Shown here one piece after another: positions 44,112 through 57,047 of a DNA stretch of 64,000 nucleotides. The stretch comes from Vulcanimicrobiota bacterium (GTDB lineage: Bacteria > Vulcanimicrobiota > Xenobia > Xenobiales > QWHO01). The notes beneath the pieces were generated by a model that did not search any database, was not told the DNA's origin, and was given only the letters and a program-made list of their open reading frames with translations. Every line of letters starts with the position of its first letter. Position 1 is the first letter of the stretch. The translations under genes and the position numbers were made by a program. The stretch spans positions 20,164 through 84,163 of the forward strand of contig CAUJEN010000043.1 of NCBI GenBank assembly GCA_963169765.1, written 5' to 3'.

Positions 44112-44894
44112 TTACTCCTGAGGAGCCGGACCCACCCGGGCCAGGTACTGGCGCAGCCAGCGCATGTAAGTCTTGCCCGGGTCGGTGCGGGCGCTGGCGG
44201 GGGGATAGCGGTCGGGATAGGTATCGTCGGCGTAGTCGGTGTACTCGCTCACCACCGACCTGCCGGCGCTGACCTCGTAATGGGCATAGACCTTATTGGC
44301 CGGAATGTCGAATTGGCGCATCAGAGAGCGCACCAGGCAGAAACTGGAGAAGACCTGGTCGGGGCGACTCAACAACTCGGCCTCGTTGCGGGCCACCATC
44401 TCGATGGAGAGGGCCACGTGGTTGACGCCGTAGGCTCCGGTGCAGCGTCGGTCGAGCGGCAAGAGCTGATACACGTTGCCCGAGGGCCCGATCATCAGCT
44501 GCACACTGACGTGGCCGAAGACCGTGCCTTTGTCGCCCGCGCTCATTTTGCAGCCGCGCAAGAACATGTTGCGCACGCTGAAGGCATCCGGGGTGACCGT
44601 GTAGTGCATGACGATGGCGCTGGGCTTGAAGGTCAGCCGGGGGTCGCGATAGTGGCGCTGGAAATACTGGTGATACTCTTCTTCCCAGTCCTGATAGGGC
44701 AGCATCCATTCCACCAGGCGAGGAGCCTCGTACTTGCGCTCCAGCAGCTTTCTGGGCAGGTCGGCCGAGAGGACCGGCCTGGGAGGGCGCTCGTAGCGCG
44801 CCTTCATGGCCTTGATGTCCTCGTCGGTGTAAGTTGTCTGGGCGGTCGTCATGAACCAGGCCGCAATCCAGAGCGTCAGGCGCCACCATCGCAT
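44112..44894 (-). CDS. Secreted N-acetylmuramoyl-L-alanine amidase (Amidase_2/PGRP-like)
   Basis: Signal/TM 'WWRLTLWIAAWFMTTAQT'. 'IVMHYT...' and 'HVSVQLMIGPSGNVYQLLPLDRRCTGAYGVNHVALSIEM' resemble the Amidase_2 core. Confidence 0.6.
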   Translation of the reverse strand: MRWWRLTLWIAAWFMTTAQTTYTDEDIKAMKARYERPPRPVLSADLPRKLLERKYEAPRLVEWMLPYQDWEEEYHQYFQRHYRDPRLTFKPSAIVMHYTVTPDAFSVRNMFLRGCKMSAGDKGTVFGHVSVQLMIGPSGNVYQLLPLDRRCTGAYGVNHVALSIEMVARNEAELLSRPDQVFSSFCLVRSLMRQFDIPANKVYAHYEVSAGRSVVSEYTDYADDTYPDRYPPASARTDPGKTYMRWLRQYLARVGPAPQE

Positions 44895-45571: not shown

Positions 45572-46669
45572 TCAGCGACCGCCTGCGATCAAAATGGCCG
45601 GGCCCTCCTCCTGGATCTGCTCCTGGCCGTCCCCGCCCTTGCGGATGGTTCGGCTGCTCCCATTGTCGTAGACCTCGGTCTTGATGCTCTCGCGGTTGAT
45701 GCCGCCGAATTCCACGTCCTGCGTGGTGGTGGTGGTGGTCTCGGTGACCAGCACCCGCGGGTAGACCATGATGGAGGTCTCCGGAACTTCGTAGCTGGTC
45801 GTGCGGGTCACGATCACGTCGCCGGCGAAGCCCGAGATGGTCTGTTTGACCTCCTGGCGGATGGACGCTCCGTCGATGGTCAGGCGGGTCTGCAGACGGG
45901 GGCCCTGCTCGGTGACCACCTCGAAGTCGCCGCTCTGGCGCTGGTAAGTGCGGGTCACGCCGTTCTCAGTGATCTTGACGAAGCGGGCCGTCTCCTCCAT
46001 GGTGACCGTGTTGCCGCGCGAGTCGCGCTCGCGCACGGTATGGCTGAAGCGGCTGCGCACGCTCTCTTGCACGGACGAGTCGGGCATCTCGACGGTGACC
46101 GTGGTCCGGCCCGAGTCTTTCTCCACCCCGATGATGCTGCCGTTGTCCACGAAGCTTCCGCCGTCAGGCCGCTGGTCGGCATAGCTCTGAAGCTTCTCGC
46201 CCACGGTGCTGAGCCGGGTGTGCAGCTCCTGGAAGGTGGTGGCCTCGGCCATGGCGTCCTCCACGCCCGATCCGTAGCGGTTGCGGACCTGGTTGGCGGT
46301 CAGATTGTCGGTCAGGCTGGGCGCAGCCACCTCTTTCATCAACTCTTGATGCTGCGGGGAAATGGGCTGGATGCCGACCTGCTGCACGGTCTGGGTAATG
46401 GCCGGAGGGGGCGGAGGAGCCATGGGAGCAGCCACGGCACCGGTGCAGGCGGCCAGAGCACCCCCCATAGCCAGGGCCAGGCCCATTCCGGCCAGGATCC
46501 GCGTCGATACCGAGGTGGTCCGGTCGGTGGGTTTCTCCTCGGAGGCCTTCAGGCCGCTCAGCTGCACCTGGTCGGCGCCCTCGGACGAGGGCCGGGCCTG
46601 AGGCGTCACCAGCCGGGCCCGGGGCGGGGCCATGCTGGACAGGGATGAGTTTACGATTACGGTGCTCAT
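45572..46669 (-). CDS. Hypothetical protein, Thr/Ser/Val-rich, with N-terminal low-complexity and Gly-zipper segment
   Basis: 365-aa ORF with consistent codon usage. 'AGMGLALAMGGALAACTGAVAAPMAPPPPP' membrane/lipobox-like segment; a beta-rich repetitive C-terminal half. Confidence 0.4.
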   Translation of the reverse strand: MSTVIVNSSLSSMAPPRARLVTPQARPSSEGADQVQLSGLKASEEKPTDRTTSVSTRILAGMGLALAMGGALAACTGAVAAPMAPPPPPAITQTVQQVGIQPISPQHQELMKEVAAPSLTDNLTANQVRNRYGSGVEDAMAEATTFQELHTRLSTVGEKLQSYADQRPDGGSFVDNGSIIGVEKDSGRTTVTVEMPDSSVQESVRSRFSHTVRERDSRGNTVTMEETARFVKITENGVTRTYQRQSGDFEVVTEQGPRLQTRLTIDGASIRQEVKQTISGFAGDVIVTRTTSYEVPETSIMVYPRVLVTETTTTTTQDVEFGGINRESIKTEVYDNGSSRTIRKGGDGQEQIQEEGPAILIAGGR

Positions 46670-46814
46670 GGAGCTCCCCCTTGAATCATCAGGTTTGTGT
46701 GTTGCTTTTGAGGCATCCTAGGCGCAGGGGGTGGCGACGTCGTTACGTGGAGATTGCCGGGTTGTTAACTTGACACCGAGAGGGGATTCCTCTCCGGCGA
46801 TAAAACCCGACTGC

Positions 46815-48303
<1,489 letters not shown>

Positions 48304-48311
<8 letters not shown>

Positions 48312-48921
48312 GAAACCGGCGCGCATTCAGGCCATCCTGGATGAGCTCTATCCCACGGTGGACATTCCTCTGGCCCACCAGGACCCGTTTACCTTGCTGG
48401 TGGCCGTGCTCTTGAGCGCCCAGACGACCGACAAGAAGGTCAACGAAGTCACACCAGCCCTGTTTGCTCGCGCCTGCACCCCTGAGGCAATGGCCACTCT
48501 GGAGGAGGAGGAGATCCGCCAGTTGATCCGGGCCATCGGCCTGGCTCCTTCCAAGGCGCGCAACCTCAAAGCCCTGAGCCAGTTGCTGGTAGAGCGCCAT
48601 CAGGGCCAGGTGCCGCGCAGCTTCGAAGAGCTGGAGGCTCTGCCCGGAGTGGGTCACAAGACGGCCTCGGTGGTGATGGCCCAGGCCTTCGGCGAGCCCG
48701 CCTTCCCGGTGGATACCCACATCCACCGCCTGGCCCAACGCTGGGGACTCTCGAGCGGCAAGAACGTGGCCGAGACCGAGCGCGACCTCAAGCGCCACTT
48801 TCCTCGCAAGGCCTGGAACAAGCTGCACCTGCAGATCATCACCTTCGGGCGGCAGCATTGCCCGGCCTTGCGACACAGGCCGCAGGAGTGTCCGATTTGC
48901 TCCTGGGCATCCTCTTCTTAG
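48304..48921 (+). CDS. nth: Endonuclease III
   Basis: 'DPFTLLVAVLLSAQTTD', 'LPGVGHKTA' (HhH-GPD), 'VDTHIHR' and the C-terminal [4Fe-4S] 'CPALRHRPQECPIC'. GTG start overlapping the malQ stop. Confidence 0.9.
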
Positions 48922-48943: not shown

Positions 48944-49741
48944 TCAAGGACCTGAGACGGCCGGCTTGGGCGGGCTGCCCGCGGGCCCGGGGGGGACCGC
49001 GTAGGGACCCGGGCGCAGAATCGTGATCCCCTGGGCCCCATAGGCTCCTCGGAAGTAGTTGTTGGGGCTGTCCAGGGTATGGCGGAAGAGCGAGTTCCCA
49101 ACGTCTTTGCTGATCATGTGGACATTGCCATCGCTGACGCGGATGACCAGGCCGGAATGGTCGGCCGTCGAGGTGCTCGTTTGATGGTAGATCACGATGT
49201 CCCCTGCCTGCGGCGTGGTGACGCGGGTGTAGCCGTAGGTCCCGGGGTCAGCCAGGATCGGGTTGGGGTCGAGGTGTCCCCCGACGGGAGGAGATTTGTC
49301 GCCCTGGCGCCAGGCAAAATCGTGGCAATAGTAATCGTTGGTTGCCGTGCCCGTAATGCGCTGCATGTTCGGGTCTTTGGGGCTCGAGTGATCGTGATTG
49401 GCGCTGAGCCTGTCTTGCAGGATGTATCGGTCTTCGCCCTTAAGGCCCCGAAAGTAGTCCTGGACGAGCGGATCCTTCCTAGCTCGAGTATAGTCGCCTC
49501 CATACTCATCCCGAATGTACTGATCCAGATCCGTGTCGCTGCGAATGCGCGACCCGGGGGCGGAATCGCGGTCTCCGTCGTTCATGCTTCGGTCGCCCGG
49601 ACCGATCATGGGACCCGGAGTGGTCACCCCGCCGCTCGGGCCCGACGGCCCGCAGGGTCCGCAGGGGCCACACGGGCCCTGGGCGGCAGCCCCGCCGGTC
49701 AAGGCGGCAGCCAGGCAAATCGTTACCAGGATGCGCATCAT
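48944..49741 (-). CDS. Secreted CHAP/NlpC-P60-like putative amidase with (GPC)3(GPS)2 N-terminal repeat
   Basis: Signal 'MMRILVTICLAAALTGGAAAQ', then 'GPCGPCGPCGPSGPSG', then 'YYCHDFAWRQ...GDIVIYH...HSGLVIRV' (Cys...His amidase-like). Confidence 0.5.
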   Translation of the reverse strand: MMRILVTICLAAALTGGAAAQGPCGPCGPCGPSGPSGGVTTPGPMIGPGDRSMNDGDRDSAPGSRIRSDTDLDQYIRDEYGGDYTRARKDPLVQDYFRGLKGEDRYILQDRLSANHDHSSPKDPNMQRITGTATNDYYCHDFAWRQGDKSPPVGGHLDPNPILADPGTYGYTRVTTPQAGDIVIYHQTSTSTADHSGLVIRVSDGNVHMISKDVGNSLFRHTLDSPNNYFRGAYGAQGITILRPGPYAVPPGPAGSPPKPAVSGP

Positions 49742-49868
49742 CGAGCCCTCCCCAGAGAAACTGCTCAAGCATGATTCGGTATGGAGCCTGGTCTACCCTC
49801 CGTGCTGGAGAAGGCCCCCGATGGGCCGCGTAGAAGGACCGCTGGACTTTCACCCGGAGGAGCACTCA

Positions 49869-52800
49869 ATGGCGGCCAGTCTTGCCGAACTCAAATCCTA
49901 CATCCTCGAGCAGGTGACCGGAGAGGAGGCCGCGTTCATTCGCAGCTTCAGCGAGGTCCTGTTCGACAAAGCCTACCCCGAGTTCTTGGAGAAGTTCGAG
50001 CCTGACGGCCTGCTCGCCGTAGCCATGGGGGCTCTGAGGCTCATCGAGCAGGCCCCCCCCGAGCAGGTCAAGGTGCGCGTCTACAAGCCCGAGCTCAAAG
50101 AGCACGGCTGGAGCTGGCCGGGCTCGGTCTTAGAGCTCCACCTCAGCGACCGTCCCTTCCTGGTCGACTCGGTGAGGGCAGAGCTGCGCCGCCACGGTCG
50201 CGAGGTATCCCACAACCTGCACCCCATTCTGCAGATTCATCGCGACGAGCACGGAAAGGTCGTGCGCTCGGGTGGCGCCGGCAAGTCCTCGCAGGAGTCT
50301 TACCAGCTCTATCTGCTGGAGGACCCGCTTGAGCCGGCGGAAGCGACCGAGCTCGCCGATGCGGTCAGCCGTGTGCTGGCCGACGTGGTGCTGGCCACCG
50401 ACGACTATACGGCTCTGCGCCAGAAGGCCGAGGGGATGGCGGACTCCATCACCCGCTACAGCCAGGACCCTTCGCTCAGCGCCGAGCGAGCCCTGGAGGT
50501 GCGCGAGTATGCCGAGTTCCTCAAGTGGCTGGGCGAAGGCAACTTCGTCTTCCTGGGCTACCGCGAGTACACCATCAAGGACGACAAGCTCAGCATGGAC
50601 AAAGGCTCCAGCCTGGGCATCCTGCGCGGCAAGGCCAGAACTTCCAGCTACCTCGAGCCGGTCTCGCTGGCCGACCTGCCTGAGAACCTCCGCCAGCGCG
50701 TCACCCAGGGTCCCATGATGGTAGTGACCAAGTCCAACGCTGAAGCCACGGTCCATCGCCCGGTGCGCATGGACTATGTGGGGGTCAAGCGCTCGGAAGG
50801 TGGCGAGCTCAGACTCCTGGGGCTGTTTACCTCCTCCGCGCTCTCCACGCCCTGTAAGGACATCCCCATTTTACGGCTCAAGATGGCCCGCGTGCTCGAG
50901 CTCGACGGCAGTCCGGAGGGCTCGCACGACTTCAAGCAGATCGTCAGCATCTTCAACTCCCTGCCCCGCGAGGAGCTGTTCTGGGGCGAGCCCGAGCAAC
51001 TGCTCAAGGAGATCCGCGCCATCATGCAGATGGAAGCGGAGAATCGAGTGCGTCTCACCGTGCGCCGCGATCCCCTGGCGCGGGGTATGCTGGTGATGGT
51101 CATCATGCCCCGTGAGCGCTTCAACGCCGGAGTGCGTCTGAAAATTCAAGAGCTCTTGCAGGAGCGTTTCAAAGCCAGCCAGGTGGACTACCAGCTTTCT
51201 ATCGGCGAGGACATGTCCCAGGTGCGCTTCCACTTCTTCCTGACCACCGAGTTCGGGGTCGAGGATGCCGACCTGAAATCCCTGGAGACCGACGTGGCCA
51301 CGCTCACTCGCTCCTGGGAGGACCTGCTCGAGGAGCGCCTCAAGGAGCAGTTCGGTGAGGGTCCCGGCGAAAAGCTGTCCGATCGGTATCGGGGAGCCTT
51401 CAACGAGGCCTACAAAGCCTGCAACACGCCTGCCATGGCGGCCCAGGACGTGGCCCGGATGGAGGCTTTCCAGGAGCGCGACTACCTCGTCGGCCTGCAT
51501 TCCGATGCCGAGGTCAGCTGGCTCAAAATCTACCATCGCCGCAACAACCTGACCCTGAGCGACACCATGCCTTTCCTGGAGAATATCGGCCTGGTGGTGC
51601 TCGAGCAACTCTCCTTTGCTGTCCAGGTCAAGGAGCGGCCCGCCTGCGGCGTGGACGTCTATCGCGTCTTGAATCGCGACCGCAAGCCTCTGCCTGTGGC
51701 GCCGGATTGCCCTCTCTGCGAGGCCATGGTCGCTCTGCTCGACGGTCGGGCGGTGGACGACCGGCTCAACGGACTCATCCTGACGGCCGGCCTGAGCGTG
51801 CGTCAGGTTTCCCTGCTGCGGGTCTATCAGCTCTATCTCTCCCAGATCGACTCCACCAGCCGCCGCTTTATCAACGACACCCTCTTGAACCACCCCGACT
51901 GCGCTCGACTGCTCTATGAGTTCTTCGAGGCCCGCTTCAAGCCGGGCGTGGAAGCTCGCGGAAGCGAGTGTCACGCAGTCAAAGAGCGCTTCCTGGAGGC
52001 GCTCAACATGGTCACCAGCCTGCCGGAAGACCGCACTCTCAGGGCCTTGCTCAATTTGATCGAGTCCACGCTGAGGACCAGCTACTTCCTGGGCCATGAC
52101 CGGATCAGCCTGAAGATCAGCTCTCAGGCCGTGGATCACATGCCCGAGCCTCGCCCGCTTTACGAGATCGTGGTGGCTGGCCCGGGGGTGGAAGGCATCC
52201 ACCTGCGCGGTGGCAAGGTGGCCCGCGGCGGCCTGCGCTGGAGCGATCGTCCCGACTTTCGCACCGAGGTGCTGGGTCTGATGAAGACCCAGATGACCAA
52301 GAACGCCGTCATCGTGCCGGTCGGCTCCAAGGGTGGCTTTTTGCTCAAGAATCCTCCCTCTGACCGCGACGAGCTGCGCACCTGCGTGGTGGAACGCTAC
52401 AAGACGTTCATTCGCGGCCTGCTCGACTTGACCGACAACATCGTGGAGGGGCAGATCGTCCATCCCAAGGACCTGGTGATCTACGACGACAACGATCCCT
52501 ACCTGGTCGTGGCCGCCGACAAGGGGACCGCCACCTTCTCGGACACGGCCAATTCGGTGGCGGCCGAATACGGCTTCTGGCTTGGTGACGCCTTTGCCTC
52601 GGGCGGGTCCTACGGCTATGATCACAAGAAGGAGGGCATCACCGCGCGGGGTGCCTGGGAGTGCGTCAAGCGTCACTTCCGCGAGATCGGGATCAACCTC
52701 GACGCTCCCTTCACGGTGGCCGGCATCGGCGATCTCTCCGGGGACGTGTTCGGAAACGGCCTGATCTACTCGGACAAGATCAAGCTGCTGGCGGCTTTCA

Positions 52801-54590
52801 ATCACCTGCACATCTTCCTGGATCCCGATCCCGACCCTGGCAAGAGCTACGCCGAGCGCGTGCGCATGTTCAACCTGCCGCGCTCGACCTGGGATGACTA
52901 CGACAAGGGCCTGATCAGCGCCGGGGGCGGTGTGCACCCGCGCCATGCCAAGTCCATCACCCTGACCCCCGAGGTGCGTAAAGCCCTGGGCATCGAGGCC
53001 GAGAAATTGAGCGGTGACGATCTGGTCAAGGCCATCTTGCGGTCTCCGGTCGACCTGCTCTGGAATGGTGGCATTGGCACCTACGTCAAGGCCACCAGCG
53101 AGCGCAACGCCGAGGTGGGCGACTCCAACAACGACCAGGTGCGCATCAACGCCCACGAGCTCAACTGCAAGGTGCTCGGCGAGGGCGGCAACAACGGCAT
53201 GACGCAGCTGGCCCGCATTGAGTATGCTCGCCTGGGTGGCCGGGTCAACACCGACGCCATCGACAATTCGGCCGGCGTGGACATGTCCGACCACGAGGTC
53301 AACATCAAGATTCTCTTCCAGCCGTTGATGTCGTCGGGCAAGCTGACCCTCGAGGAGCGCAACAAGATTCTCGGGGAGATGACCAACGAGGTCAACGCGC
53401 TCGTCTTGCTGGACAATTACTGCCAGTCGATGGCTCTGAGCCTGGCTGAGCGCCGCTCCAGGCAAGACATGGCGCTTTTTTCGACCCTCATCGATTATCT
53501 GGAGGAGCGGGGCGGGCTCAAGCGCGAGGTGGAGTTCCTTTCCGACCTCAAGGCCATCGCCGAGCGCGAGCGCAACGGCGAGGGTCTGACTCGCCCCGAG
53601 CTGGCTATCGTGCTGGCCTATACCAAGATGGGGCTGTTCCGGCGCCTCCTGGAGACGGACTTCCCTGAAGAGCCGCACTTCCAGCACTACCTGACCCACT
53701 ACTTCCCCAAGCTCTTGCGCGAGCGCTTCCCGGATGAGATCAAGAACCACCAGCTGCGGCGGGAGATCATCGCCACCCAGTTCACCAATCGGGTGGTGGA
53801 CATTCTGGGCATGACCTTTGTCCATCGCACGATCCGTAACACGGGCGCGACTCCCGTGGCGGTGGTTCGGGCGGCCCTGATGGCTCTGGAGATCCTCAAC
53901 CTCGAGCCGCTCATCACCGACATCTTCGGCCTCGACAACCAGGTGCCGCCGGCTGCCCAGTATGACGCGCTCTGGAGTGTGCTCGAGACGGTTGAGAGCG
54001 TGGTCAACCAGATGCTGCTCATCCACGGGATGCGGGGAACCGTGAGCGAGTTCGTGCGCGATTACCGAGAGCCCCTGCTGGACATCCGTCAGCGTTTTCC
54101 GGACCTCTTGCCTGCCAAGGAGCAAGAGCTGTTCAGCGCGCGCCAGAAGGAGTTCGAGGGCCACGGCTTCCCGAGCGAGCTGGCGCGCCACATCGCCACC
54201 CTGGCCTACTTGCCCAGTGGGTTGGGGGTGGTGGATGCAGGCCGGATGGCCCGGGTGGATATCGCCCACGCCGCTCAGCATTACTACGCTCTGGGCGATC
54301 GCCTGGCGCTGGGCTGGCTGCGCATCCGCCTGTCCCGCCTGACGGGCCAGAACAAGTGGGAGACCATCGCCCTGGAGGGTCTCATCATGGACCTTCGCCA
54401 ACTGCAGCTGAAGCTGGCTCTGGGCAGCCTCAAGCACGCCAGCCCGGACGAGTTCCTGGCCGGCCTGGGCGAGCGGGTGCGGCGCTACGAAATGGCCCTC
54501 ACCGAGATTCGTGAATCCAATGCGCTGTCGCTGGCTTCCTGCGGGGTGCTGGCCCGGCAGCTCAGCCAGATGGCCCAGGCACTGGCGTGA
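49869..54590 (+). CDS. gdhB: NAD-specific glutamate dehydrogenase, large (~180 kDa) GdhB type
   Basis: 1574-aa ORF. 'ITARGAWECVKRHFREIGINL', 'GIGDLSGDVFGNGL' and 'HELNCKVLGEGGNNG' match the Bac_GDH catalytic core; long N- and C-terminal helical regions. Confidence 0.9.
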   Translation: MAASLAELKSYILEQVTGEEAAFIRSFSEVLFDKAYPEFLEKFEPDGLLAVAMGALRLIEQAPPEQVKVRVYKPELKEHGWSWPGSVLELHLSDRPFLVDSVRAELRRHGREVSHNLHPILQIHRDEHGKVVRSGGAGKSSQESYQLYLLEDPLEPAEATELADAVSRVLADVVLATDDYTALRQKAEGMADSITRYSQDPSLSAERALEVREYAEFLKWLGEGNFVFLGYREYTIKDDKLSMDKGSSLGILRGKARTSSYLEPVSLADLPENLRQRVTQGPMMVVTKSNAEATVHRPVRMDYVGVKRSEGGELRLLGLFTSSALSTPCKDIPILRLKMARVLELDGSPEGSHDFKQIVSIFNSLPREELFWGEPEQLLKEIRAIMQMEAENRVRLTVRRDPLARGMLVMVIMPRERFNAGVRLKIQELLQERFKASQVDYQLSIGEDMSQVRFHFFLTTEFGVEDADLKSLETDVATLTRSWEDLLEERLKEQFGEGPGEKLSDRYRGAFNEAYKACNTPAMAAQDVARMEAFQERDYLVGLHSDAEVSWLKIYHRRNNLTLSDTMPFLENIGLVVLEQLSFAVQVKERPACGVDVYRVLNRDRKPLPVAPDCPLCEAMVALLDGRAVDDRLNGLILTAGLSVRQVSLLRVYQLYLSQIDSTSRRFINDTLLNHPDCARLLYEFFEARFKPGVEARGSECHAVKERFLEALNMVTSLPEDRTLRALLNLIESTLRTSYFLGHDRISLKISSQAVDHMPEPRPLYEIVVAGPGVEGIHLRGGKVARGGLRWSDRPDFRTEVLGLMKTQMTKNAVIVPVGSKGGFLLKNPPSDRDELRTCVVERYKTFIRGLLDLTDNIVEGQIVHPKDLVIYDDNDPYLVVAADKGTATFSDTANSVAAEYGFWLGDAFASGGSYGYDHKKEGITARGAWECVKRHFREIGINLDAPFTVAGIGDLSGDVFGNGLIYSDKIKLLAAFNHLHIFLDPDPDPGKSYAERVRMFNLPRSTWDDYDKGLISAGGGVHPRHAKSITLTPEVRKALGIEAEKLSGDDLVKAILRSPVDLLWNGGIGTYVKATSERNAEVGDSNNDQVRINAHELNCKVLGEGGNNGMTQLARIEYARLGGRVNTDAIDNSAGVDMSDHEVNIKILFQPLMSSGKLTLEERNKILGEMTNEVNALVLLDNYCQSMALSLAERRSRQDMALFSTLIDYLEERGGLKREVEFLSDLKAIAERERNGEGLTRPELAIVLAYTKMGLFRRLLETDFPEEPHFQHYLTHYFPKLLRERFPDEIKNHQLRREIIATQFTNRVVDILGMTFVHRTIRNTGATPVAVVRAALMALEILNLEPLITDIFGLDNQVPPAAQYDALWSVLETVESVVNQMLLIHGMRGTVSEFVRDYREPLLDIRQRFPDLLPAKEQELFSARQKEFEGHGFPSELARHIATLAYLPSGLGVVDAGRMARVDIAHAAQHYYALGDRLALGWLRIRLSRLTGQNKWETIALEGLIMDLRQLQLKLALGSLKHASPDEFLAGLGERVRRYEMALTEIRESNALSLASCGVLARQLSQMAQALA

Positions 54591-54982
54591 AAAAGCCCAG
54601 CTTGCAGTATTCGCTCACCTGTCTGGGGGTGGACGAGCGCCACGGCCCCCCCAGCTTCAACTATGTCTTTTACCGGCTGCCCCTGGCCTCGTTCCCCTAC
54701 CGCTTCCCGGCTGACGCAGGGTTCTTCCTGGTCAACGCCTGGTGCGACGGCGAGGGCGAGTTCAAGCAGCGGGTGGTGATCACCGCTCCCGACGGCCAGA
54801 CCACGCTGCTCGACACCGGTCAGCGGCCCTTCAAGCTGGAGAGCCCGCGCTCTTTGGACCAGTCCATCTGGTTCCTGCAGGGCTTCAGCTTTCCCATCGC
54901 CGGCTTCTACCCGGTCAAAGTCTATCTGGAGGATCAGGTCGTGCTCGAATATGCCATCGAAGCCTACGAGACCCCCTCATGA
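54587..54982 (+). CDS. Hypothetical protein translationally coupled to gdhB
   Basis: 131-aa ORF whose start overlaps the gdhB stop (GTGA). Beta-rich; no family recognised. Confidence 0.5.
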   Translation: MKKPSLQYSLTCLGVDERHGPPSFNYVFYRLPLASFPYRFPADAGFFLVNAWCDGEGEFKQRVVITAPDGQTTLLDTGQRPFKLESPRSLDQSIWFLQGFSFPIAGFYPVKVYLEDQVVLEYAIEAYETPS

Positions 54983-55344
54983 ACCTGACCGACTACCTTG
55001 GCGATGTGGCCCGGGGGGTGCGCGACGGCCAGGAGTTCGACCCCCACGACCTGGCCCTGGTGGGCTTGCGGGTGGCCGAGAAGCTGGAGAAGGTCTACCA
55101 ACAGCTGGAGGACAATCCTGCCCCCGAGGGGCTGGAGGGCCTGGACGAAGCCACCCGCGAGGCGGCCAATCTCTATGGCGAGGCGGCCGAGCTGATCATG
55201 CGCTCCAACCAGGAAGGCGACCCCGGTCTGGCCGAAAAAGCACTCGAGTGCATCCAGGAAGCCTGCGACACGCTCCGGTTGGTGCGCCAGCGGGCCAGCG
55301 AAACGCGCCAGATTCTGGATGAGGAAGTGGGGGCGAGCTACTGA
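54979..55344 (+). CDS. Hypothetical acidic helical protein, coupled (ATGA) to upstream ORF
   Basis: 121 aa. 'MNLTDYLGDVARGV...' starts at an ATG overlapping the previous stop. Confidence 0.5.
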   Translation: MNLTDYLGDVARGVRDGQEFDPHDLALVGLRVAEKLEKVYQQLEDNPAPEGLEGLDEATREAANLYGEAAELIMRSNQEGDPGLAEKALECIQEACDTLRLVRQRASETRQILDEEVGASY

Positions 55345-56045
55345 TGGACGCCATTCCCGAGCTGAACGTCCGGGTCTCCCTGAACCTCTGGGGAGGCTCG
55401 TCGTCTTCCCCGATGGCCTTCCGGCGCATGTCGCCGCTGGCCGGCATCCAGTCGGTCGAGCGGGCCCGGGTGGCCCAGGAGAATCTCTCCAAGTTGCTTT
55501 TCGGAGCCGACCTCTCGCCCGATGAGCTGCAGGCTTATCGCCAGCGCCTCATGCGGGCGCTGGACATGTCCGACAACCTGGAAGACCTCGAGGAAGAGCT
55601 GCCCGAGATCAAGGAAAAGCGGGTCAGCGGACCGCGCGGCTCCTACCACGTCGGCAACGTGCTCTGGACCCCGCCACCCGAGTTTCAGCTCAAGCCGCCG
55701 GCCGACGCGATCCAGGTCTCTCCCGTGCACCAGGTGCATAACGTCAGCCTGCTCGAGCGCATCAACTTGTGCGCCGACTGCGGTCTGGCCAAAGGGCCCG
55801 ACAAGCCTGACTGCGGCCAGTGCGGGGCGGTGGAGCGCCAGCGGGTCAGCCGGGTGGGAGTCTTCCTGGCCGCCGCCGGGGAGATGGGGGAGATCGGCCA
55901 CGATTCAGTGGATATGAGCTCGAAGGGCCTGCAGCAGCTGACCGAGCCGCGAAGGGGAGCCGACCTGGTCACCACCCGCATGCCGCCGAAGTTCGTGCGC
56001 CGCTATGAGATGCTGCAGCTCGGACAGCCGGCGGAAGCGGCCTGA
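55344..56045 (+). CDS. Hypothetical protein with C4 zinc-ribbon-like Cys cluster, coupled to upstream ORF
   Basis: 233 aa. 'CADCGLAKGPDKPDCGQCG' is a CxxC...CxxC ribbon. ATG immediately follows the previous stop. Followed by the hairpin 'gcccgacgg...ccgtcgggc' (56114-56145). Confidence 0.5.
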   Translation: MDAIPELNVRVSLNLWGGSSSSPMAFRRMSPLAGIQSVERARVAQENLSKLLFGADLSPDELQAYRQRLMRALDMSDNLEDLEEELPEIKEKRVSGPRGSYHVGNVLWTPPPEFQLKPPADAIQVSPVHQVHNVSLLERINLCADCGLAKGPDKPDCGQCGAVERQRVSRVGVFLAAAGEMGEIGHDSVDMSSKGLQQLTEPRRGADLVTTRMPPKFVRRYEMLQLGQPAEAA

Positions 56046-56335
56046 AAATTCGACCGCCCCTGTCGTCGCTGAGATTATTGATCGCTCCCATCGTCGCCAA
56101 GAAATATTGAAGCCCGACGGTCGGGGGGGGGTCACCCGTCGGGCCTCAAACTGAATCTTTCTGAGCTCAGAATACCTTGAGCCGGCCCTCTGCAACAGGC
56201 ACATGTCTACCAGCCGTCTACCGGTAGAATGCTGCCACCGGGAAGCAAGTTGCGCTGACGGCGAGCGTGAAAGAGTCCACCGACAACGGTTTGGCATTGG
56301 AGGGAATGCTTGCGCGAGCGTGCAAATTCTCTTCA

Positions 56336-56920
56336 ATGCCCCTGATCAACAGAGAACCTCGAAGCTTTTCGGTGGATGAGTATGCCCTGATGGGCGAGGC
56401 GGGGGTCTTTCGGCCCGGCGAACGGGTCGAGTTGATCGAGGGAGTGATCGTCTCCATGTCCCCTCAGAACGTGCCCCATGCCTCCCGCATTGCCCGCCTC
56501 ACGACCCTGCTCGTAAACGCTTTCGGGCAAACCCACGAGGTGAGGGTCCAGCTTCCCCTGACCCTGGGCGAGCGAAGCGAGCCCGAGCCCGACTTTGCCC
56601 TGGTTCGCTTCGAGCAGGCCGACCAGGCCAGGCGGCATCCCGACGGCGCCGATCTGGTGATGGAGATCTCGGACTCTTCGCTCAGTTTCGATCGCACCGA
56701 GAAGGCCAGCCTCTATGCCAGGGCCGGTATCCCCGAATACTGGGTCTTGAATCTCCCGGCCCAGCGTCTCGAGGTGCGCCGACAACCCCGTCCCGATCCC
56801 GAGGCCAGCTTTGCCTGGGGCTATTCCGAGCTGACTCTCGTCGCTCCGGGCCAGGAGGTGGCCCCCCTCTTTCAGCCCGAGGCCCGCTTTGCCGTGGGCC
56901 GGTTGCTCGGTCTGGAGTAG
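56336..56920 (+). CDS. Uma2-family (DUF820) PD-(D/E)xK endonuclease
   Basis: 'FSVDEYALMGEAGVF...RVELIEGVIVSMSP', 'PDFALV' and 'ADLVMEISDSSLSFDRTEKASLYARAGIPEYWVLNL' give the Uma2 pattern with the D...E-x-S core. Confidence 0.8.
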   Translation: MPLINREPRSFSVDEYALMGEAGVFRPGERVELIEGVIVSMSPQNVPHASRIARLTTLLVNAFGQTHEVRVQLPLTLGERSEPEPDFALVRFEQADQARRHPDGADLVMEISDSSLSFDRTEKASLYARAGIPEYWVLNLPAQRLEVRRQPRPDPEASFAWGYSELTLVAPGQEVAPLFQPEARFAVGRLLGLE

Positions 56921-57047
56921 TTACCGAACGCGCGTCGAGCACCCAAAGCGTGTCGCCCCATTCAATGCGGTACTGCGTCAGAGGGTTAGAAGGCACCTTC
57001 CCCGGCCCGTCGAATTTTCAGGGCACAGACAGCCGAGGAGGATGCGC

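Follow-up and report, generated by a model that had tools for sequence, protein, structure and literature searches.

The large glutamate dehydrogenases (GDH) of the 180-kDa class, L-GDH180, are known to be controlled in more than one way. In mycobacteria the enzyme is inhibited by GarA, a small all-beta protein that acts through binding, and the enzymes of this class are in addition controlled by metabolites and have a flexible quaternary structure (PMC8175468). GarA is the only well-described protein regulator of the class in that account (PMC8175468). The stretch of DNA analyzed here (the window) comprises 64,000 nucleotides of contig CAUJEN010000043.1 of a Vulcanimicrobiota bacterium of the class Xenobia and contains a gene (gdh) for an L-GDH180 that is followed, through a series of overlapping stop and start codons, by three small genes, which we designate ORF1, ORF2 and ORF3. 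Translational coupling to gdh is not known for garA. The arrangement in the window is a DUF6941 cassette attached to gdh. As it stands, the cassette is conserved and translationally coupled, consists of one domain of unknown function (DUF) and two undescribed families, and occurs in rare uncultured lineages. Our composite reading, which we hold with slightly more belief than doubt, is that an older, self-contained cassette of three proteins was recruited into the gdh operon of Xenobia and is co-expressed there with glutamate catabolism.

Structure of the gdh unit

The unit consists of four genes on the forward strand:

49869-54590 (+): gdh, NAD-specific L-GDH180, 1573 aa, opens the unit
54587-54982 (+): ORF1, 131 aa, DUF6941 beta-sandwich
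54979-55344 (+): ORF2, 121 aa, acidic, apparently helical
55344-56045 (+): ORF3, 233 aa, with a CxxC-x10-CxxC motif

The product of gdh matches PF05088 (779.9 bits) and GDH_C (291.7 bits) as well as ACT1 (106 bits), ACT2 (73 bits), ACT3 (34 bits) and HM1-3 (43-71 bits), all above the Pfam cut-offs, and its combination of catalytic, N-terminal ACT-like and helical, and C-terminal domains in a single polypeptide places it in the L-GDH180 class. Its ATG at 49869 is preceded by the Shine-Dalgarno sequence GGAGGAG, and the orthologues, which are 80-96% identical, all give alignments that begin at residue 1. Neither of these features supports a longer, GTG-started frame from 49533.

Each of the three small genes has a start codon that overlaps the stop codon of the gene before it. 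The GTG of ORF1 (54587) shares a GTGA with the gdh stop TGA (54588-54590), the ATG of ORF2 shares an ATGA at 54979-54982 with the stop of ORF1, and at 55342-55346 the ATG of ORF3 and the stop of ORF2 overlap by one base in TGATG. An earlier reading of this DNA, made from its letters and open reading frames (the sequence-only reading), had given these coordinates and the three overlaps behind gdh, and both stood when the sequence was re-read. A Shine-Dalgarno sequence is not visible upstream of ORF1 or ORF2, and a scan of the forward strand for promoter-like sites found none within or between ORF1-3, so that the small genes are probably translated by termination-reinitiation from gdh. Ribosomes that end translation of gdh and of ORF1 would re-initiate at the overlapping starts, and the output of the cassette would thereby be tied to glutamate catabolism, the proteins being produced for the most part at the times and places of GDH translation. 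The stoichiometric co-expression claimed in the sequence-only reading goes further than this, since stop/start overlaps argue for coupled translation and not for a 1:1 stoichiometry, and tight coupling of this kind is not to be read as proof of partnership. In Xenobia, gdh, ORF1, ORF2 and ORF3 probably form one operon.

Coding status of the small ORFs

The DNA is 64% G+C and contains abundant long shadow frames, such as those at 50871-54437 (-) and 57018-58463 (-), and the coding status of ORF1-3 therefore needed testing, as frames of this kind could be chance products of G+C-rich DNA or the decayed remnants of former genes. Such an explanation is contradicted by several properties of the three frames. 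The G+C content of third codon positions (GC3) in the proposed frames is 0.86 for ORF1 and 0.87 for ORF3, compared with 0.85 for gdh. The ratio of nonsynonymous to synonymous substitution rates (dN/dS), calculated with orthologues in four other loci, is 0.02-0.21 for ORF1, 0.04-0.30 for ORF2 and 0.06-0.44 for ORF3, far below 1 in each comparison, and that of gdh is 0.07-0.19. In six or more loci the frames of all three are uninterrupted and keep their starts and stops, and ORF1 in addition exceeds the cut-off of a Pfam family and has a confidently predicted fold (see below). The view that the small ORFs are not genes is thus refuted, its remaining probability being practically nil; they are genuine genes under purifying selection, tightly packed with gdh and kept in each of the Xenobia relatives found (64-98% identity). 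Of the two outcomes that were to count against the sequence-only reading, absence of the ORFs downstream of gdh in close relatives and failure in coding tests, neither was found.

Conservation of the unit within Xenobia

The nearest genomes are those of Candidatus Xenobia AMX-MBFR-33 and a metagenome-assembled genome named 'Vulcanimicrobiota' (class Xenobia, Eremiobacterota). A scan of genomes with the ORF3 alignment gave only three loci, all of them from Xenobia or mis-binned, and a scan of metagenomes with a narrower DUF6941 alignment gave only one, near-identical locus. Three loci (L007, L008 and L010), in which the small ORFs have 95-98% identity to those of the window, are collinear with it save for two variable inserts. 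A more distant lineage, represented by L001 and L009, has a GDH that is 80% identical, and its ORF1, ORF2 and ORF3 are 76, 73 and 74% identical, respectively. In L001 the h45572-GH77-HhH-GPD genes, which lie upstream of gdh in the window (45572-48921), are inverted and located about 5 kb downstream of ORF3 (L001 15416-18768), and neither the CHAP gene nor the genes that lie downstream of the unit in the window were found in that locus. Breakpoints are therefore present on either side of the gdh unit, yet gdh, ORF1, ORF2 and ORF3 remain together. In a lineage with 64% identity (L005) ORF2-ORF3 is retained, the contig being cut inside ORF2.

The junctions are conserved as well as the gene order. 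The (A/G)TGA overlap of gdh with ORF1 is present in all six of the Xenobia loci that cover the junction, and TGATG recurs in six loci. The exceptions are in L001, where a 15-nt spacer with AGGAG stands in place of the ORF1/ORF2 overlap and the ORF2/ORF3 junction reads TGAcATG. The unit is thus conserved, but all of the evidence for linkage comes from one narrow clade.

This degree of conservation bears on a different interpretation, a narrower form of what the sequence-only reading had suggested, in which ORF1-3 would be dedicated to the Xenobia L-GDH180 as partners in its regulation or assembly, and would bind its N-terminal ACT/PAS region or its C-terminal domain and tune its activity or tetramer state, translational coupling serving to set their dosage relative to the enzyme. 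Consistent with this are the overlap at the gdh/ORF1 junction in six of six loci, the survival of the block when both of its flanks were rearranged, and a rate of evolution in the small genes that is about as low as that of gdh. Its precedent is GarA, together with the metabolite control and flexible quaternary structure of L-GDH180 enzymes (PMC8175468). GarA, an FHA protein, is small and all-beta and provides the functional analogy on which the proposal is modeled. By contrast, ORF1-3 carry no FHA domain (a search for it gave no match at E values up to 1), and the DUF6941 sandwich of ORF1 belongs to a different family. Moreover, much of the linkage within a single narrow clade is explained by shared ancestry alone, and the distribution of the cassette and of L-GDH in other lineages, described below, also argues against a dedicated partnership, which we consider unlikely. 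If an effect of the cassette on GDH were real, the cassette would add a new class, and only the second known kind, of protein regulator for the 180-kDa enzymes, the control of which is poorly understood, and DUF6941 would have its first function.

ORF1 and the DUF6941 family

Profile searches gave a family name to one of the three small proteins, all of which the sequence-only reading had left without an assigned function: ORF1 is a DUF6941 protein, and ORF2 and ORF3 match no described family. ORF1 matches DUF6941 (PF22091) with 37.8 bits, compared with a cut-off of 27, over profile positions 2-122 of 125, and is therefore a member of the family; its homologs P0007-P0012 also carry PF22091 matches. 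Its homologs fall into six clusters in a word-indexed search of 5.8 billion protein clusters, and the counterpart in bacterium CPR1 differs by few residues (a cluster with 97% identity). An exhaustive search with a profile of ORF1 and its relatives yielded 180 DUF6941 representatives (clustered at 50%), most of them stand-alone proteins of 110-170 aa. A search of the literature library used here found no mention of DUF6941 or of a gdh-coupled arrangement.

The AF2 model of ORF1 (pLDDT 78, pTM 0.76) is a nine-strand, all-beta sandwich, the prediction being poor for one loop (residues 33-41), which lies inside the conserved stretch FPYRFP. The best Foldseek matches to this model are the lipid-binding sandwiches of PDE6-delta, UNC119 and RhoGDI and the carbohydrate-binding domain of Wzt, with E values of 2e-4 to 2e-3 and TM-scores, normalized to query length, of 0.50-0.55. 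In those proteins two sheets hold a ligand or the tail of a partner. At 8-13% identity and a root-mean-square deviation of about 5 A, however, the resemblance is that of generic Ig-like folds and does not imply homology. A sequence search of the PDB with ORF1 gave chance matches only.

Two sequence features are nearly invariant across the DUF6941 family, the N-terminal motif LQ(F/Y)S-x-x-C and NxW. In an alignment of 30 diverse family members, P-x-L-Q-x-S-x-x-C (ORF1 residues 4-12) and N-x-W (residues 50-52) are at least 90% conserved (window 54596-54742), G106 is invariant, and a conserved cysteine lies in strand 1. A lipoprotein signal in ORF1 was considered and ruled out, as there is no hydrophobic h-region and the model places the cysteine in beta-strand 1. 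Frameshifting that would join ORF1 to GDH was likewise rejected, a GDH-DUF6941 fusion occurring in none of 150 representatives.

Many members of the family have low-complexity tails rich in Pro, Ala and Glu, several are tandem double-domain proteins, and one is fused to a fragment of FHIPEP (FlhA-like). Among P0103, P0118, P0034 and P0045, two (P0103 and P0118) end in CxxC...CxxC tails at the C terminus, and these are a weak 'Rosetta stone' for the combination of a sandwich with a zinc ribbon.

DUF6941 and L-GDH genes in other lineages

ORF1, whose match spans the whole of the family profile, falls into a small subgroup together with P0026, P0036 and P0039 (44, 37 and 38% identical to ORF1), the genes of which are followed by an overlapping small gene, and within this subgroup the upstream neighbor is gdh only in Xenobia. 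The genes for these three relatives are carried by L019, L020 and L021. On all three contigs the gene upstream of DUF6941 is on the opposite strand, so that these DUF6941 genes are not preceded by gdh, and a small gene begins at a 4-nt GTGA overlap with the DUF6941 stop. The small protein of L020, which is complete (116 aa), is aligned with the ORF2 family by hhalign with a probability of 92% and an E value of 6e-7, colinearly over 113 of its 116 residues, and the 89-aa fragment of L019 gives a probability of 92% and an E value of 7e-7. The gene following DUF6941 is thus a supported ORF2 homolog in the case of P0026 and P0036. In L021 only 46 residues are visible, with 22% identity in the ORF2 alignment, and the gene is ORF2-like by position and length. 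As a control, the helical protein encoded upstream in L020 gave an hhalign probability of 5.6% and is not demonstrably an ORF2 paralog. The stop of the ORF2-like gene in L020 overlaps a start in TGATG, which is followed by Met-Glu-Ile at the end of the contig; ORF3 begins at the same junction with Met-Asp-Ala-Ile, and L020 thus has what looks like the first codons of an ORF3-like gene. A DUF6941/ORF2-like pair with GTGA coupling therefore exists without gdh directly upstream, which indicates that the coupled pair existed before it became attached to gdh, as the trio probably did too. BLAST did not bear out an apparent similarity of the genes that lie upstream of the cassettes in L019 and L021.

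The other DUF6941 genes have heterogeneous neighbors. P0012, P0018 and P0022 are stand-alone genes that adjoin a divergent cyclase or BtpA gene, the gene for P0024 has, on four contigs (L015-L018), a divergent MoxR-type operon on one side and a SpoIID-domain gene on the other, and those for P0019 and P0030 (L011, L023) follow YggU (PF1765-like) in two lineages. GDH was not found by tblastn in eight other DUF6941 contexts. The four independent contigs with the DUF6941 relatives of 48-50% identity, P0012 and P0018 (L006, L012, L013 and L014), all break 31-129 nt past the gene, and the longest tail, that of L014, enters tandem repeats of the GTTGACA type. This suggests a repeat or variable region past the P0012 and P0018 genes and a lineage that lacks ORF2 directly downstream.

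From the side of the enzyme, an L-GDH is present in 55 records of plasmids or chromids from Proteobacteria and Actinobacteria, and tblastn searches of 72,556 plasmids with ORF1 and ORF3 gave no match and hence none in the 55 L-GDH records. The genes 3' of gdh in Rhodococcus and Ralstonia are unrelated. From these sequence comparisons, the attachment of the DUF6941 cassette to gdh looks specific to Xenobia. The proposal that the small proteins serve the 180-kDa GDHs as a class, as regulators or in assembly, therefore fails on distribution, as the DUF6941/ORF2-like pair occurs without an adjacent gdh and L-GDH records occur without ORF1 or ORF3. The same facts count against a partnership restricted to Xenobia, as do the heterogeneity of the other DUF6941 neighborhoods and the failure of the two proteins to occur as a fusion.

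The variety of contexts in which the cassette and single DUF6941 genes are found could also be accounted for by a selfish or accessory module, toxin-antitoxin-like, defensive or mobile, that hitch-hikes on gdh transcription and has no physiological tie to glutamate metabolism. Small overlapping genes are typical of such modules, and the region downstream of the unit is variable, with a Uma2 gene confined to the window and, in part, L008, and a PIN pair that is missing in L008. However, ORF1-3 have no match to PADLOC models or PHROGs, neither ORF1 nor ORF3 has a match in the 72,556 plasmids, there are no flanking mobility genes or repeats, and GC3 is the same as that of host genes. The cassette keeps its position in relatives with identities between 98% and about 75% (L001), L005 (64%) showing ORF2-ORF3 only, purifying selection is as strong as that on gdh, and paralogs are lacking in the window. 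Overall we judge a selfish module to be very unlikely.

Proposed origin and possible role of the cassette

In the recruitment scenario, the cassette, composed of the ORF1 sandwich, the acidic, apparently helical ORF2 and the zinc-ribbon-like ORF3, would predate the link to gdh, internal overlaps included, and in Xenobia would have come to sit directly behind gdh by way of the (A/G)TGA overlap. The three proteins probably act together as a small heteromeric complex in which the beta-sandwich of ORF1 would serve as a ligand- or partner-binding module. Selection would then maintain co-expression with glutamate catabolism rather than an obligatory binding to GDH.

Several observations weigh against this scenario. 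The contigs that carry the separate pairs (L019-L021) are 0.9-1.9 kb in length, which leaves room for a gdh farther off, for example downstream, and outside Xenobia no full homolog of ORF3 was observed. The structure predicted for ORF3 by AF2 from six sequences has a pLDDT of 42 and is unusable. In addition, the invariable overlap with gdh fits a direct functional tie, and coupling to one particular enzyme gene exceeds the need of mere co-regulation. It is conceivable, although we think it quite unlikely, that in Xenobia L-GDH180 is bound by the trio, which would control the activity of the enzyme or the open/closed state of its tetramer, or else that the trio ties glutamate catabolism to another process.

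Properties of ORF2 and ORF3

L-GDH180 and DUF6941 are already known, and ORF2 and ORF3 represent families not yet described. ORF2 has an isoelectric point of 4.28 and appears helical. Its homologs form five clusters among the 5.8 billion, with 74-97% identity, and in the loci compared homologs of 73-97% identity are always in the same position. A match to MIT (PF04212) of 17.2 bits (E 0.0055) is below the gathering cut-off of 30 and is a lead only; an unrelated-looking helical protein encoded next to the L020 cassette has the same sub-threshold match (17.1 bits). The match of ORF2 to DUF6244 (PF19757), 19.2 bits with an E value of 0.0018, is also below its cut-off (31.6), and a profile search of the PDB gave designed (de novo) helical proteins only.

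ORF3 has an isoelectric point of 5.7 and no predicted membrane segment, and bacterium CPR1 encodes an identical hypothetical protein. Its homologs form six clusters among the 5.8 billion, with 64-100% identity, all from Xenobia or Eremiobacterota. The zinc-ribbon motif of the sequence-only reading does contain two CxxC pairs, but they are spaced by ten residues and not by eight: C143, C146, C157 and C160 form CxxC-x10-CxxC and are invariant in the six homologs, whose alignment has 120 invariant columns including the four cysteines. Zinc-ribbon models in Pfam and NCBIfam are unmatched by ORF3 (NrdD-type, E 0.06-0.3; S27ae, E 0.75), and the protein has no match in Pfam, NCBIfam, PADLOC, PHROGs or the PDB. 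By hhalign it has no similarity to the protein encoded downstream of the ORF2-like paralog in L020 or to the zinc-ribbon tails of P0103 and P0118.

For the three proteins together, no match of significance was obtained in NCBIfam or PHROGs, no family of the PADLOC defense and toxin-antitoxin models was matched at E values up to 1, and no paralogs were found within the 64-kb window.

The downstream hairpin

The unit is followed by a conserved non-coding region with two features:

56107-56149 (+): hairpin whose loop of G8-9 is invariant, 62 nt past the ORF3 stop, conserved
56102-56246 (+): conserved non-coding block of about 145 nt with the hairpin, between the unit and the next gene

The sequence-only reading had noted a hairpin with a 9-bp stem after ORF3. 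The 9-bp core is present, but the structure is larger than described, as 11-13 pairs can be drawn at 56107-56149. Its minimum free energy, -22.3 kcal/mol, is not unusual for the composition (z = -0.7 compared with shuffled sequences). Across six sequences 11 pairs are 100% paired, and L005 has two compensatory double changes. The hairpin follows ORF3 in the window, L005 (947-1020), L007, L008 and L010. It is absent after ORF3 in L001, where a copy (444-516, -) lies on the other strand right after the stop of a Tricorn_N/PD40 gene. The block of about 145 nt is 90-94% identical in L007, L008 and L010, and the adjacent intergenic DNA has indels; about 30 nt downstream of the hairpin are also conserved (..TTCTGnnCnnAGnATAC). 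An Rfam search with the 145-nt block gave no match at E values up to 1, there is no tRNA or tmRNA, and the window contains no second copy of the element.

Like an intrinsic terminator, the structure is a G+C-rich hairpin directly after the last gene of a unit and has compensatory changes. Unlike such terminators, it has a conserved loop and downstream sequence, has a copy behind another gene in L001, and is not followed by a T-run. The stem thus lacks a defining feature of a canonical intrinsic terminator, and for this reason a terminator scan reports no site at the hairpin. The transcript of the unit probably ends at this G-loop hairpin, which may be a lineage-specific 3'-end structure, terminator-like, or a repeat element.

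Neighboring genes

Beyond the hairpin, a gene of the Uma2 family (PF05685) occupies 56267-56920 (+). It is absent in L007 and L010 and truncated in L008, which points to its recent insertion on the 3' side of the conserved element, ahead of the next gene. That next gene, at 56889-58469 (+), encodes a basic multi-pass membrane protein of 526 aa that belongs to no Pfam family and follows the unit in close relatives. A homolog with 26% identity (L022 3934-5442) is encoded 0.8 kb upstream of a stand-alone DUF6941 gene whose product is 51% identical to ORF1; the proximity of the two in L022 could be a second link to DUF6941 or a coincidence. Conservation is lower for the long antisense ORF at 57018-58463 (-), which is probably a shadow frame. 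Farther downstream, at 58488-59108 (-), a PIN-domain gene and a 77-aa gene upstream of it look like a VapBC-type pair, which has 68-93% identity in L007 and L010 and is missing in L008.

On the other side of the unit, upstream of gdh, there are genes of the peptidoglycan-hydrolase type with Amidase_2 and CHAP domains, at 44112-44894 (-) and 48944-49768 (-). The presence of Amidase_2 and CHAP near gdh and of SpoIID or YggU near other DUF6941 genes hints, at the level of gene neighborhoods, at a cell-envelope or cell-division theme.

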